A stretch of 40,334 bases of DNA from Escherichia phage AnnaIndermaur_Bas104. Numbering within the stretch: the stretch's first letter is position 1; each line of letters starts with the position of its first letter. The position numbers were made by a program, and so were the translations under genes. The stretch is taken from sequence record PQ850595.1; one strand, given 5' to 3'. This document shows, one piece after another, positions 1 through 40,334 of this stretch. The notes under the pieces were generated by a model that did no database searches, was not told where the DNA came from, and saw only the letters and a program-made list of their open reading frames with translations.

Positions 1-204
1 ATGTTGTCTTTAGATTTCAACAACGAAATCGTAAAGGCGGCTCCGATTGTCGGGACGGGTGTGGTTGATGGTGCAGCCCGTCTCTTCTTTGGATTGTCGC
101 TAAACGAATGGTTCTATGTTGCTGCTATCGCCTACACAGTAGTTCAGATTGGTGCTAAGGTAGTCGATAAAGTAATTGATTGGAAGAAAGCAAATAAGGA
201 GTAG
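1..204 (+). CDS. 17.5: holin (T7 gp17.5 homolog), 67 aa
   Basis: ORF-track protein MLSLDFNNEIVKAAPIVGTG... is near-identical to T7 gp17.5 as I recall it; RBS GGAGG lies at the window 3' end (40322-40326), implying circular contiguity. Confidence 0.9.
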   Translation: MLSLDFNNEIVKAAPIVGTGVVDGAARLFFGLSLNEWFYVAAIAYTVVQIGAKVVDKVIDWKKANKE

Positions 205-2888: not shown

Positions 2889-3042
2889 GGAGGGACGAAA
2901 GGTTACTATATAGATACTGAATGAATACTTATAGAGTGCATAAAGTATGCATAGTAGTGTACCTAAAGTGACCTCTAAGAATGGTGATTATATTATATTA
3001 ATATCACCTTAACTTAAAGACCAACATAAAGGGAGGAGACTA

Positions 3043-3192
3043 ATGTTCCGCTTATTGTTGAACCTATTGCGGCATAGAGTCACCTACCGCTTTCTTATGG
3101 TACTTTGTGCTGCCATTGGGTACGCATCGCTTACTGGAGACCTCAGTTCACTGGAGTCTACCGTTTGCTCTTTACTCACTTGTAGCGATTAG
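3043..3192 (+). CDS. 19.5: gp19.5 homolog, 49 aa small hydrophobic protein
   Basis: MFRLLLNLLRHRVTYRFLMVLCAAIGYASLTGDLSSLES... matches T7 gp19.5; GGGAGGAG RBS; below the 60-aa ORF-track cutoff. Confidence 0.8.
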   Translation: MFRLLLNLLRHRVTYRFLMVLCAAIGYASLTGDLSSLESTVCSLLTCSD

Positions 3193-3432
3193 GGTCTTCC
3201 TGACCGACTGATGGCTCACCGAGGGATTCAGCGGTATGATTGCATCACACCACTTCATCCCTATAGAGTCAAGTCCTAAGGTATACCCATAAAGAGCCTC
3301 TAATGGTCTATCCGTAAGGTCTATACCTAAAGATAGGCCATCCTATCAGTGTCACCTAAAGAGGGCCTTAGAGAGGGCCTAAGGAGTCCCTAGAGGGTCC
3401 TTTAAAATATACCATAAAAATCTGAGTGACTA

Positions 3433-5657: not shown

Positions 5658-6737
5658 GTGAACATTACCGACATCATGAACGCTATCGACGCAATCAAAG
5701 CACTGCCAATCTGTGAACTTGACAAACGTCAAGGTATGCTTATTGACTTACTGGTAGAGATGGTCAACAGCGAAACATGCGATGGCGAGATAACCGAACT
5801 GAATCAGGCACTTGAGTTTCAAGACTGGTGGACTACCTTGAAGTGTCTCACGGCTGACGCAGGATTCAAGATGCTCGGTAATGGTCACTTCTCGGCTGCT
5901 TATAGTCACCCGTTGCTGCCTAACAGGGTGATTAAGGTGGGCTTTAAGAAAGAGGATTCAGGCGCAGCATACACCGCATTCTGCCGAATGTATCAGGGCC
6001 GTGCTGGTATCCCTAACGTCTACGATGTACAGCGTCACGCTGGATGCTATACGGTTGTACTCGATGCACTGAATGATTGCGAGCGTTTCAACAATGATGA
6101 ACATTATAAATACGCTGAGATTGCAAGCGACATCATTGACTACAAATCAGATGAGCACGATGGGCTAACTGGGTGGGATGGCGAGTTCGTCGAGACTTGC
6201 AAGCTAATCCGCAAGTTCTTTGAGGGCATCGCTTCGTTCGACATGCACAGTGGGAACATCATGTTCGATGATAATGATGTACCATACATTACCGACCCTG
6301 TATCGTTCTCACAGAAGAAAGACGGTGGCGCATTTAGCATCGACCCTGAGGAACTCATCAAGGAAGTCGAGGAGGTCGCACGTCAGAAGGAAATTGACCG
6401 CGCTAAGGAACGTAAAGCACGTCATGTGGGTCGATTGGAGGCACGCAGATTCAAACGTCGCAACCGCAAGGCACGTAAAGTACACCAAGCGAAGCACAAG
6501 CGAATGGTCGCTGCGTGGCGAATGGCTGAACGTCAAGAACGACGTAACCATGAGAGAGCTGTAGATGTACTAGGAAGAACCGATAACGCTATGCTCTGGG
6601 TCAACATGTTCGCTGGGGACTTTAAGGCGCTTGAGGAACGAATCGCAGCGCACTGGTGTAAAGCTGACCGAATGGCTATCGCTAATGGTCTTCCGCTTAA
6701 CATCGACAAGAAACTTGACGCAATGCTAATGGGCTGA
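5658..6737 (+). CDS. 0.7: serine/threonine protein kinase / host transcription shut-off (T7 gp0.7 homolog), 359 aa, GTG start
   Basis: same length as T7 gp0.7 and near-identical over the full length. Confidence 0.9.
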
Positions 6738-37000: not shown

Positions 37001-38064
37001 TGGCTAATGTGGTTGGTACTCTTCGTTTCAGCACTCAGGAGTTAGCGGCTCGTTCACCGTGGACTGTTATGCTAAATGGAACCACTAACTACATCCTAGA
37101 TGCTGCCCGTCAAGGTGTCCTTGGGGATATTGCCAGTGCAGCACTATCAGGGACTGGTGCTAAGTTTGGTAAGGCAAACTATCTTAAGTCTGCCTCAATC
37201 AGTCCTGAGCAGTGGGATGGTATCAAGCAATTATTTCGGGACCACACAACTAGGGATTCTAACGGTAAGTTCACAATCAAGGACAAAAGGGCGTTCACCT
37301 ACGACCCACGCACGATGGATTTGTGGAGGCTTGCTGACAAAGTGGCTGGAGAGACTATGCTGCGCCCGCATAAGATTTCCTCTCAAGATTCCGTTGCGTA
37401 TGGGGCAGGAGTAAAGATGGTGATGCAATTTAAGAACTTCGTTATCAAGTCGCTTAACGCCAGATTCGTCCGTAGCTTCTATGAGGCCACAAAGAACAAC
37501 CGTGCGTTAGACCAAGCGTTAACTCACATTGTTGCCTGTGGGCTTGCTGGTGGATACTACGTTGGACAGGCGCACCTAAAGGCCGCTGCCTTGCCTGAGG
37601 ACAAACGTAAGGAGTACCTCAAGATGGCACTAGACCCGAAGATGATTGCCCATGCGTCTATCTCCCGTAGCTCACACTTAGGTTCGCCACTTAGCATCTA
37701 CGATATGATCGCTGGGGTGTTTGGTGATGATACCTATAAATACACACGCTCCACGATACTACCTAAGCAACCAGATGAACGAGATCGCACAAAAGCGGTC
37801 ACAGGTCGGCAGGTGACTGGTATGATTAGTGGTGCTTTAGGTGAGCAGATTCCTGCTTTGGGGTTCGCAGGGCAGGTTGGTGGTACAGCGCTTAATGCCG
37901 TATCACTACTGAAAGCACCTAACAAGGCTACCGAGATGGAGTTCCGTACAGGGATGTTTAATACCATGCGTGAGATTGTTCCTAACGACCCTATCACGCA
38001 GCAACTCATTATGAAAATTTATGAGGCCAATGGTATCTACATCAAGGAGACACCTAGGAAATAA
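34090..38064 (+). CDS. 16: internal virion protein D with N-terminal lytic transglycosylase domain (T7 gp16 homolog), 1324 aa
   Basis: SLT-like N-terminus ...WTESRFQPTAKSKTGPLGMMQFT...; length and sequence as T7 gp16. Confidence 0.95.
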   Translation: MVKYDKNVPSEYDGLFQKAADANGVSYDLLRKVAWTESRFQPTAKSKTGPLGMMQFTKATAKALGLRVTDGPDDDRLNPELAINAAAKHLAELVNKFDGDELKAALAYNQGEGHLGSPQLEAYTKGDFSAISEEGRNYMRNLMDVARSPMSGQLEAFGGITPKGKGIPSDVGLGDIQVEGKRKVTDAIPESTGFNIKGIEQEAPAKSFATDFWDHHKQELSEYDDRSTFFGFKDAASAEIDNSVLGMAFRAGRLDNGFDVFKDVITPTRWNSTVWTPEELERIRTEVKNPAYLNVVTGGSPENLDDLIRLANENYENDLKKADAGIGAQLSAGVVGSAFDPLSYVPLVGVTGKGFKLINKALVVGAESAAINMASEGMRTSIVGGDANYTGAVLGGLVFGAGMSAISDAISAGLRRSKPEAEFNNEFVGPLMRMEARETAFNANSVDTSKMNTDSVKFDREYSGVDYAPLDTEPGAVVLPQGQILSDTNPLNPQTLSEFEAINPERAARGISLGGFTEIGLKTLRSENAAVRSIARDLVRSPTGMESGSNGKFGSTADDIHSRVSSNDNRDWNLYYDKMNEVLKDPEFTTGAPKMSKAEAVEFIDRKIGLAIEHPELQVNLSPKELDLMRHVKGHYDLKRELMENPAVFGNPKAVSIFPGSNYKGTYIPRVYDTQSKNFYIQLLGSREAFQEAIAGSSLASYYLRPEVKARIDEHLMEVNGLKSPKDVTHEMVRKHAMDKAYGISHSDQFSASSIVDENITGLVGIENNNFLEARNLFDTDVPITLPDGSTFCVDDIRVFSQRILMPAYDRRVNGDIAIMGSSGKTTKELKDEIMELSKQAEGNGQLKGEVEALKDTVKILTGRARRSPEGALGTALRSLNDLTFFAKNFYMPLQNFTEIAGMLVKGNVSAMTHGIPMINDWVNRRKPMRASEIKELHSMVFGKELDQLMRPSREDHIRRLRESTDTNAVLANVVGTLRFSTQELAARSPWTVMLNGTTNYILDAARQGVLGDIASAALSGTGAKFGKANYLKSASISPEQWDGIKQLFRDHTTRDSNGKFTIKDKRAFTYDPRTMDLWRLADKVAGETMLRPHKISSQDSVAYGAGVKMVMQFKNFVIKSLNARFVRSFYEATKNNRALDQALTHIVACGLAGGYYVGQAHLKAAALPEDKRKEYLKMALDPKMIAHASISRSSHLGSPLSIYDMIAGVFGDDTYKYTRSTILPKQPDERDRTKAVTGRQVTGMISGALGEQIPALGFAGQVGGTALNAVSLLKAPNKATEMEFRTGMFNTMREIVPNDPITQQLIMKIYEANGIYIKETPRK

Positions 38065-38084
38065 TACGACTCACTATAGGGAGA
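38062..38084 (+). promoter_or_regulatory. T7 RNAP promoter phi17 (class III)
   Basis: TAATACGACTCACTATAGGGAGA. Confidence 0.9.
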
Positions 38085-38136
38085 GGCGAAAGAATCTTCT
38101 CCCTGTAGTCTCTTAGATTTACTTTAAGGAGGTCAA

Positions 38137-39927
38137 ATGGCTAACGTAATTAAAACCGTTTTGACTTACCAGTTAGATGGCTCCAAGCGTGATTTTAATA
38201 TCCCGTTTGAGTATCTAGCCCGTAAGTTCGTAGTGGTAACTCTTATTGGTGTAGACCGCAAGGTCCTTACGATTAATACAGACTACCGTTTTGCTACGCG
38301 TACTACCATCTCACTAACCAAGGCTTGGGGTCCGGCAGATGGCTACACGACCATCGAGTTGCGTCGAGTAACCTCCACGACCGACCGATTGGTTGACTTT
38401 ACGGACGGCTCAATCCTACGTGCGTATGACCTTAACGTAGCTCAGATTCAAACTATGCACGTAGCAGAAGAGGCCCGTGACCTTACCGCCGATACTATCG
38501 GTGTTAATAATGATGGTCACTTGGATGCCCGTGGTCGTAAGATTGTGAACCTAGCGTTCGCTACTGGCGACTATGATGCTGTTCCTCTGAAGCAGATTAA
38601 GGAACGTGAGAACTCTGCGTGGAACGCTGTTATTAAATCTGACGAACACGCTAACCGCTCCAACAGGGAAGCCAACCGCTCACGCGACGAAGCTGACCGC
38701 GCGAAACGTGAAGCTGACCGCTCAACCCAACAGGCAGGTGTCTCTACGTCACAGGCAGTTGAGTCCAAAACGCAAGCTGACCGTTCCAACTCTGAGGCCA
38801 ACCGTGCTAAAGGTTATGCCGATAGTATGACCACAAGCGTCGCTGAGGCCAAGAAGCAAGCTGACCGCTCTAACTCTGAGGCCAATCGTGCCCGTGATGA
38901 GGCCAATCGTGCTGCCGGAGAAGTGACTAAAGCTGCTGCTGAGGTTGTCAAGGCTGCTGCACATGTTGGGACCGCTAAGGGACATGCTGACCGAGCCAAC
39001 ACTGAGGCAAACCGTTCCAAAGGCGAGGCTGACCGTGCTAAGGCCGAGGCCGATAAGTTGGGCAACATGAATGGCCTTGCTGGTGCTGTAGAGAGAGTTC
39101 AGGGTAATAGTGTATCATGGAAAGGAGAAGGCTCTTGGGTTGGAGGTCCTGTATACAGACTTCCAACGAACAACGCATTTAGGTTCCGTATGGGTATTTG
39201 GGAAGAAGGCGACTTCCTTAAGTCTGACTTCGCCATGGACCGACCGGACGGTATAGGGTTCATAGAGTATTCAGCGGACAAGACTGGGCAACATCGTCAC
39301 CAGATGCGACTTAATCAGTTAACAATAGCTGGTGGTGTGTTAGAGTCAGATGCTGATGGTCTCATAGCTCACGCTTTCGCTGACCAGTACAACACTAAAG
39401 CTCCTTTCTTCCAACAGATTAATGTACAATCTACAAGCTCATATCATCCAATAATAAAGCAACGAACTTTCCAAGCTGGACGATGGGCAGGATGCTGGTC
39501 TATCGGCACATTACTGACTGGAGCGCATCCATCATTCCACATACATATGAGAGACGAAGCTGGAAATGATAAACTTTGGGCGTTCAATACTAATGGAGAC
39601 TTCCACGCCAATGGGGAGATTTGGGCAGATGGTGGACGTGTGGTTGTACGGAATGGCTCTTTAAACCCTGAGGGTAGAGTTTGGGGTACTGCGTATAATA
39701 ACGGATACCTAGATGACTGGATTCGGGCAAACTGGCCAGGCGATGTTTATTGGGGTCCTCAACGCTGGCAACAGAAGTGGGGAGGTTATGCAGACATTTA
39801 TGCTGGTGCTGGGGAAGCCTGCTCTGGTATAACCGCCGATGGTAGCGGTAACGTTGCGGGTGCATTCTTCCGAGCGCTTTGGCTTGGGTATCACAATGGT
39901 AATAGACGATTAGTTGCTTCCCAATAA
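38137..39927 (+). CDS. 17: tail fiber protein, mosaic: T7 gp17-like N-terminal tail-attachment domain plus heterologous coiled-coil and C-terminal receptor-binding region, 596 aa
   Basis: first ~150 aa (MANVIKTVLTYQLDGSKRDFNIPFEYLARKF...GHLDARGRKIVNLA) match T7 gp17; the remainder shows no resemblance to T7 gp17 as I recall it. Confidence 0.9.
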   Translation: MANVIKTVLTYQLDGSKRDFNIPFEYLARKFVVVTLIGVDRKVLTINTDYRFATRTTISLTKAWGPADGYTTIELRRVTSTTDRLVDFTDGSILRAYDLNVAQIQTMHVAEEARDLTADTIGVNNDGHLDARGRKIVNLAFATGDYDAVPLKQIKERENSAWNAVIKSDEHANRSNREANRSRDEADRAKREADRSTQQAGVSTSQAVESKTQADRSNSEANRAKGYADSMTTSVAEAKKQADRSNSEANRARDEANRAAGEVTKAAAEVVKAAAHVGTAKGHADRANTEANRSKGEADRAKAEADKLGNMNGLAGAVERVQGNSVSWKGEGSWVGGPVYRLPTNNAFRFRMGIWEEGDFLKSDFAMDRPDGIGFIEYSADKTGQHRHQMRLNQLTIAGGVLESDADGLIAHAFADQYNTKAPFFQQINVQSTSSYHPIIKQRTFQAGRWAGCWSIGTLLTGAHPSFHIHMRDEAGNDKLWAFNTNGDFHANGEIWADGGRVVVRNGSLNPEGRVWGTAYNNGYLDDWIRANWPGDVYWGPQRWQQKWGGYADIYAGAGEACSGITADGSGNVAGAFFRALWLGYHNGNRRLVASQ

Positions 39928-39936
39928 GGAGACATT

Positions 39937-40320
39937 ATGCGTAAATTTACTAACTGGACATACGAAGTAACTACCGCTTACGGCGGTATCGCCACTTATG
40001 ACGTGACGGCCTCTTGTGGGACCGATTGGTATGAACTCATGGTTGAACTTGAGGACCGACCTGAGAGATGGGTAGTCGGTATTGATAAGAACGGATTCAT
40101 CTCATGGTTCTCCGATGGAACTGTTAACGGCACTTATGCGCCACCTGAGGGCGGTCTGGTGATTGTCACCGATGAGTTCGACCCTGAGTGGCAACGTGTT
40201 AAACTTTGGAACGGGGAGTCCTTCGAGGATATCCCTAATCCACCTAAACGTACACCTGAGGAAATCCAAGCAGACCTTGAGGCTCTGATGGTTGAACTTC
40301 GTGGGCTTAGGGGGGGATAA
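39937..40320 (+). CDS. hypothetical protein, 127 aa; candidate tail-fiber assembly chaperone (weak Tfa-like resemblance)
   Basis: intact ORF with AAGGAG RBS 6 nt upstream, inserted between gene 17 and 17.5; acidic, no TM; PEGGLVIVTDE...LWNGESF loosely resembles the lambda Tfa / P2 gpG N-terminal region as I recall it. Confidence 0.45.
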   Translation: MRKFTNWTYEVTTAYGGIATYDVTASCGTDWYELMVELEDRPERWVVGIDKNGFISWFSDGTVNGTYAPPEGGLVIVTDEFDPEWQRVKLWNGESFEDIPNPPKRTPEEIQADLEALMVELRGLRGG

Positions 40321-40334
40321 TGGAGGTAAACTAA

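Follow-up and report, generated by a model that had tools for sequence, protein, structure and literature searches.

The window analysed here is the whole stretch of 40,334 nucleotides from Escherichia phage AnnaIndermaur_Bas104. Its last genes are a tail fibre gene and a small open reading frame directly behind it, and the reading of this small gene involves the following genes and signals:

38062..38084, plus strand: perfect T7 class III promoter, the phi17 equivalent, 5' of the fibre gene and with 0 mismatches to TAATACGACTCACTATAGGGAGA
38137..39927, plus strand: gp17-like tail fibre gene, 596 aa, with Phage_T7_tail at aa 1-155
39926..39931, plus strand: AAGGAG, the ribosome-binding site for the small gene as seen in the sequence, 5 nt 5' of the ATG
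39937..40320, plus strand: short Tfa-like gene, ATG to TAA, 127 aa
40322..40327, plus strand: ribosome-binding site GGAGGT of the holin gene, read from the sequence
1..204, plus strand: class II holin gene, gp17.5-like, next after the small open reading frame across the record junction

The AAGGAG motif overlaps the stop codon of the fibre gene (39925-39927), and the ATG of the small gene lies 9 nt past the end of the gp17-like fibre gene. The small open reading frame is followed by only 14 nt before the window ends, and the holin ATG is position 1 of the window, which makes the record a circularly permuted complete genome in which the small gene is found between fibre and holin only across the record junction. 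Read across that junction, the position before the holin given by the first-pass annotation is correct. The same annotation had described a gene with its own ribosome-binding site, lacking in T7 between genes 17 and 17.5, acidic, and placed directly after a heterologous fibre C-terminus, and these observations hold as well: the AAGGAG motif is present, T7 has only a 58-nt gap at that place, the 127-aa protein has a pI of 4.3 with 23 D+E against 11 K+R and is also hydrophilic (GRAVY -0.48), and homology to T7 gp17 stops at residue 330 of the fibre.

Between the promoter at 38062..38084 and the end of the window no further phage promoter was found, nor was any terminator-like site found in 37900-40334, which suggests that the fibre gene and the small gene are probably co-transcribed, late. 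Throughout the window, the T7 RNA polymerase promoter consensus has 10 matches, all on the plus strand, where none would be expected by chance. They start at 2866, 3892, 9468, 9544, 10048, 22377, 25327, 26366, 30734, and 38062; half of them (22377, 25327, 26366, 30734, and 38062) are perfect, and the pattern fits T7-specificity promoters.

Judging from its conservation, the 127-aa open reading frame is a real gene and not a chance one, because homologues occur in about 63 phage records and about 21 protein clusters, with 14 columns that are invariant across 12 diverse homologues. The phage records, searched by tblastn, hold homologues of 30-98% identity, and belong mostly to Studiervirinae of Escherichia, Klebsiella, Erwinia, Pantoea, Serratia, Yersinia, and Citrobacter. 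The clusters, of 109-136 aa, were obtained when 1.84 billion representative proteins were scanned exhaustively with HMMER; a few long multi-stretch matches in that scan, to Big_2, invasin, and UDPGT proteins, were set aside as spurious, since they are unrelated repeat proteins. A word-indexed protein search with the 127-aa open reading frame returned one near-identical match. By these searches, the short-Tfa family is small and phage-restricted. The five closest homologues are all annotated as 'hypothetical protein', and several distant members of the short family already bear an automatic annotation as tail fibre assembly proteins.

The genetic neighborhood is conserved. The order gp17 fibre, small gene, holin is present in every T7-like locus opened, and the same order is seen in those metagenomic contigs that reach the holin, and the shorter contigs at least have a gene ending just 5' of the small-gene homologue. 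Homologues are also found in the T4-like Erwinia phages Cronus and IT22 (OP586623). In Cronus, the homologue (locus 6001..6393) is flanked by the distal long-fibre gene, which it follows directly, and by the holin gene; this is the place of gp38.

Some of the records with homologues show peculiarities of their own. The homologue of Escherichia phage CICC 80001 (KM242061/NC_027387, 1268..1519) matches aa 1-85 only, with a BFVD entry of 109 aa, and appears to be without the conserved C-terminal helix, by truncation, frameshift, or sequencing error. In Klebsiella phage GlastosBack, the annotated coding sequence of the homologue (2908..3387) has its start within the fibre gene, 93 nt before the conserved one at locus position 3001; the annotated start codon is probably mis-called. 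Escherichia phage ST2 (OM982647.1) is a 171 kb 'partial genome' filed under Kagunavirus, in which a T7-like block of fibre fragment, short Tfa, class II holin, and small terminase adjoins T4-type annotations, 'discriminator of mRNA degradation' and 'immunity protein' among them. This record is probably chimeric, assembled from several phages.

Two parts can be distinguished in the small protein:

39937..40236, plus strand: N-terminal alpha/beta domain, aa 1 to about 100, predicted to have the fold of the Mu Tfa fibre-binding domain
40249..40311, plus strand: amphipathic C-terminal helix, aa 105-125, with heptad core I110, L114, L117, L121, and L124

The assignment of the N-terminal domain does not come from Pfam. 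A search with Caudo_TAP (PF02413), the check that had been suggested beforehand, gave no match for the window protein or for 12 homologues, even at E<=1; the gathering threshold of this profile is 22.1 bits, and lambda Tfa, Mu U, and P2 G, run as positive controls, reach 127-148 bits. The open reading frame and its homologues likewise had no relevant match in the rest of Pfam or in NCBIfam. In PHROGs, the window protein alone matches phrog_136, 'tail fiber assembly protein', only marginally (E 0.024), and nine of the 12 homologues match the same profile with a best E of 8.7e-13. Mu U and P2 gpG belong to this family and match it at E 1e-81.

The relationship becomes clearer when profiles are compared with hhalign. 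The small-protein family aligns with a diverse canonical Tfa profile, consisting of Mu U, U', P2 G, EmilieLinder Gp60, and Yanou ORF48, with a probability of 91% and an E of 9.7e-7, and this alignment pairs aa 19-99 of the small protein with Tfa residues 28-108. In it, GTDWYEL corresponds to G(K/N)(N/D)WYE, and PEGGLVIVTDEF corresponds to PEGFSVVE(I/V)PDIT. When the target is a single sequence (Mu U, P2 G, or lambda Tfa) or a Mu U alignment of low diversity, the comparisons are weak (E 0.03-0.3) and collinear. Against lambda Tfa (phrog_105), the family profile aligned over only 12 columns (E 0.31), and a lambda-type Tfa identity was rejected, the N-terminal part of lambda Tfa being another family that gives no alignment. 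The likeness of PEGGLVIVTDEF to Tfa proteins that had been noticed by eye thus stands for the Mu/P2 gpG type, with the hhalign E value just given, and falls for lambda Tfa.

The predicted structure leads to the same family. An AlphaFold2 model built on 22 family sequences (pLDDT 91.6) consists of a beta-rich N-terminal domain and a helix at aa 107-125. The top Foldseek match of this model, with a probability of 1.00, is chain B of 5YVQ, the Mu Tfa, to which the small protein is 16% identical, and every other match has E>1. The modelled N-terminal domain has a central beta-sheet flanked by helices, as in Mu/P2-type Tfa. In BFVD, past the members of its own family, several of the matches carry a tail-fibre assembly annotation and are 137-199 aa long, and others are tail proteins that are unnamed or have a different name. 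A search of the PDB by sequence profile had a nanobody as its sole match (E 0.52), which was discarded as chance.

Canonical Tfa proteins combine a variable fibre-binding N-terminal domain with a conserved C-terminal oligomerisation module, and it is this conserved C-terminal domain that is held to drive fibre oligomerisation. The domain, of about the last 70 aa, is absent from the short family, as the first-pass annotation had already remarked: the family matches to phrog_136 end at profile positions of about 120-133 of 178, and Caudo_TAP, which spans residues 40-175 of Mu U, is unmatched. The amphipathic C-terminal helix, 20 residues long, gives no hhalign alignment to the canonical C-terminal domain. 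It is instead the best-conserved segment of the family, with a mean pairwise identity of 62% against 34% for aa 1-100, and the C-terminal part has R105, D113, L114, L117, E120, and L121 as invariant residues. At the level of sequence, the short protein repeats the canonical layout, with a variable N-terminal domain followed by a conserved C-terminal, putative oligomerisation module. Whether it deserves to be regarded as a distinct 'minimal Tfa' class, in which the helix would do the job of the roughly 70-residue Caudo_TAP C-terminal region or that function would be dispensed with, is a tentative proposal, to which somewhat less than even confidence is given.

The fibre encoded upstream is of mixed origin. 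Pfam Phage_T7_tail matches aa 1-155 with an E of 1.6e-66, and homology to T7 gp17 is confined to aa 1-330, equivalent to T7 aa 1-288, so the C-terminal part is heterologous. Two further features lie in this distal half and the small gene:

39721..39924, plus strand: fibre tip, aa 529-596, related to the Mu S tip and proposed as the docking site of the chaperone
39090..40331, plus strand: cassette exchanged with respect to Yanou, comprising the fibre distal half and the small gene, with blastn boundaries

A profile of the tip aligns end to end with Mu S 436-504, the last 69 residues of that protein (hhalign E 3.9e-5, probability 71%), and both have the motifs DV.LG.Q, GHV.TG, and (Y/F)(I/V)RP(V). 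With moderate confidence, the partner fibre can be said to end in a Mu S / P2 H-type tip. A single-sequence structure model of the tip reached a pLDDT of only 31 and was discarded. As PMC9608196 summarises North et al. 2019, the 5YVQ structure has Mu Tfa bound to this C-terminal tip of Mu S.

The small gene and the fibre tip travel together. The last 117 aa or so of the fibre were found in 30 phage records, and all 30 also hold the small gene, which is the outcome of the co-occurrence check that had been proposed for a fibre chaperone. A word-indexed protein search with the fibre tip gave no match; the tip HMM, in turn, matches the extreme C-termini of proteins located 5' of the homologues in metagenomic loci. 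Across 11 loci, the pairwise identities of small protein and fibre tip rise and fall together (Pearson/Mantel r 0.85, permutation p 2e-4), and the correlation of the small protein with the fibre N-terminus is not significant (Spearman 0.17). The long fibre of Cronus has only its C-terminal 100 aa or so in common with the window fibre, at 31% identity; the presence of short Tfa in Cronus and IT22 with only this last part of the fibre in common indicates transfer of tip plus chaperone between podoviruses and myoviruses.

Other parts of the fibre gene have features of their own. The rod, at about aa 170-330 (window 38640..39130), contains degenerate repeats of 7 aa (21 nt), of the type (E/Q)A(N/D)RS/(E/D)A(D/N)RA, with a TRF array at 38990..39050, and internal 48-nt repeats of the gene were detected by blastn at 38760-38807 and 38844-38891. 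This rod is about 42 aa longer than that of T7, as window aa 1-330 correspond to T7 aa 1-288, and the repeats and the extra length suggest expansion and contraction of the rod by repeat slippage. Further downstream, the profile of aa 447-530 or thereabouts (about 39475..39726) weakly matches residues 57-142 of 4a0t (E 0.0019). This entry is the C-terminal crystal fragment of T7 gp17, in which those residues correspond to gp17 positions of about 383-467, and the weak match implies that the distal half may be a mosaic of a T7-like domain and then a Mu-S-like tip.

The limits of the exchanged segment can be read from two relatives. The nearest relative, Cedecea phage Yanou, is about 96-97% identical over the genome, and its homology, at 95-96.5% identity on both sides of the segment, ends at 39089 and returns at 40332. 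Phage C5, which carries the short gene, has homology beginning at 39028, and its small gene differs by only 7 codons, 3 synonymous and 4 non-synonymous, a number too small for this comparison to be informative. The left crossover therefore lies at about 39028-39089, and these homology limits define the exchanged unit as the fibre distal half plus the chaperone gene. In Yanou, the slot is occupied by a canonical 175-aa Tfa (ORF48), which follows a fibre of the same length class with a different tip.

The same canonical Tfa arrangement is found in EmilieLinder (Bas103), whose fibre N-terminus is 92% identical to that of the window fibre over aa 1-336. EmilieLinder Gp60 is presented in PMC11990801 as a Mu-like Tfa that, by prediction (S7 Fig), joins the fibre in a heterohexamer. 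The 175-aa Tfa proteins of EmilieLinder and Yanou sit between gp17 and the holin, as the short gene does, and a WY motif is common to both forms (DENGNDWYEL in the canonical Tfa, SCGTDWYEL in the short protein). Unlike the short protein, they have the full length of a canonical Tfa, share 28-31% identity with Mu U and U', and pair with a different tip that is closer to Mu S'. The short protein is thus the positional equivalent of a canonical Tfa, and the window holds the alternative cassette with the short form.

Among the known systems, the closest are Mu Tfa (gene U, gp50; 5YVQ chain B) and P2 gpG. Like them, the short gene lies directly 3' of its cognate fibre gene and is swapped with the fibre tip. 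In contrast to them, the protein has 127 aa instead of 175, is without the conserved C-terminal W..Y..L..VD region, and belongs to a podovirus with a T7-type fibre. A similar modular logic is found in gp25 of cyanophage Pam3, a simplified Tfa-like chaperone that was solved as a 3:3 complex with the fibre gp24 and that combines a variable fibre-binding N-terminal beta domain with a conserved C-terminal helical trimerisation module (PMC9608196). However, Pam3 gp25 is not among the structural matches of the short protein, and its helical domain has several helices instead of one.

The homologues of Cronus and IT22 occupy the position of gp38, which is a chaperone in T4 and an adhesin in T2 and S16. 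The short protein is much shorter than those of the gp38 adhesin family, to which it has no Pfam match, and has the fold of the Tfa N-terminal domain. A gp38-type adhesin or chaperone was rejected as a candidate, no gp38 family being present among the Pfam or PHROG matches. Lastly, the C-terminal intramolecular chaperones of T5 pb1 and of MeretOppenheim (Bas102), a sibling Teseptimavirus, address the same problem, the folding of a trimeric fibre from its C-terminus. Those chaperones act in cis and are cleaved off, whereas here the chaperone is a separate gene; no intramolecular chaperone Pfam domain was found in the window fibre.

Taken together, the small gene very probably encodes a shortened Mu/P2-type Tfa that is made late with the fibre and inherited with the tip as a cassette, and that would bind a Mu-S-like tip with its N-terminus and trimerise through its helix. 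In this mechanism, the phi17-type promoter would drive late transcription of the fibre gene and the small gene as a unit. The N-terminal alpha/beta domain would then dock on the Mu-S-like C-terminal tip of gp17, probably with one chaperone per fibre chain, and the conserved heptad helix would gather three copies of the chaperone. The three fibre C-termini would in this way be kept in register, so that trimer folding could begin at the tip. Fibre distal half and small gene would form one recombination cassette altering host range.

A reading that keeps the same fold and partner is that the small protein is a permanent component of the virion, which stays on the fibre tip and takes part in the recognition of the O-antigen receptor. 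Mu Tfa does stay on mature virions and contributes to host recognition, as North 2019 is reported in PMC9608196, the structural match of the small protein is exactly the fibre-bound domain of Mu Tfa, and the N-terminal domain co-varies with the tip. Nevertheless, the simplified Tfa-like chaperone Pam3 gp25 is absent from virions (PMC9608196), and the short form is without much of the canonical Tfa protein, so that retention in the virion is somewhat less likely than not. A transient 'cap' would be a different matter: the chaperone would block receptor binding on new fibres, sparing the progeny from O-antigen-rich debris, and would be shed later. Such a cap is the subject of a proposal on Alteromonas phages (PMC10579305) and has been brought up for glycan-targeting phages as well (PMC11990801), and the BASEL phages Bas102-104, of which Bas104 is a Teseptimavirus, depend on the O16 O-antigen; the small protein has no sequence link to the Alteromonas chaperones, though, and the idea seems improbable.

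Readings outside the Tfa family fare worse. The first-pass annotation had weighed a possible fibre chaperone against an unrelated inserted gene, such as a moron or a defence or counter-defence gene that merely happens to lie between fibre and holin. The 'hypothetical protein' annotation of all five closest homologues and the lack of any Pfam or NCBIfam match would suit such an insertion. Against it, fold and profile homology point to Tfa, the gene is adjacent to a fibre gene across podoviruses and T4-like myoviruses, its divergence co-varies with that of the tip, and it replaces a canonical Tfa in the same slot. These results speak for the chaperone and make an unrelated insertion very improbable. 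Some homologues, in HZP2 (MK542821/NC_048164), VAC1 (MZ428229), VR4605 (OM103160), and Emp27 (MN013074), are labelled as 'ssDNA-binding protein'. Yet searches of Pfam, PHROGs, and NCBIfam turned up no SSB family, the modelled fold is the one known from the N-terminal domain of Tfa, and in the related phage EmilieLinder a gp2.5-type ssDNA-binding protein is encoded separately, with the early and middle genes. Since neither family nor fold fits, the label looks like a propagated annotation error, and an ssDNA-binding role can be given next to no credence.

Tfa genes beside fibre genes are textbook knowledge, and the small gene is an expected, fairly ordinary kind of phage gene, a shortened version of a known Tfa family. 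A Mu-like Tfa in a Teseptimavirus has also been published already (PMC11990801), and the short Tfa reveals no new kind of system. The new point is a modest one, namely that a single heptad helix stands where the conserved canonical C-terminal domain would be, and this compact variant is useful for asking which parts of a Tfa are really needed. The assignment offers a predicted function for about 60 'hypothetical' proteins, and corrects the ssDNA-binding labels on homologues.

T7-type phages are the main chassis for host-range engineering via fibre swapping. For this use, the locus indicates that some gp17 tips come with a predicted obligatory partner gene, and that the natural exchange unit is the fibre distal half together with the chaperone, 39090..40331; a tip swap without the chaperone would probably yield misfolded fibres. 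If the 'minimal Tfa' proposal is true, an N-terminal domain and a short coiled coil would be sufficient to nucleate the trimer folding of a Mu-S-type tip, and the gene would provide a very small, portable chaperone module for the engineering of T7-type fibres.
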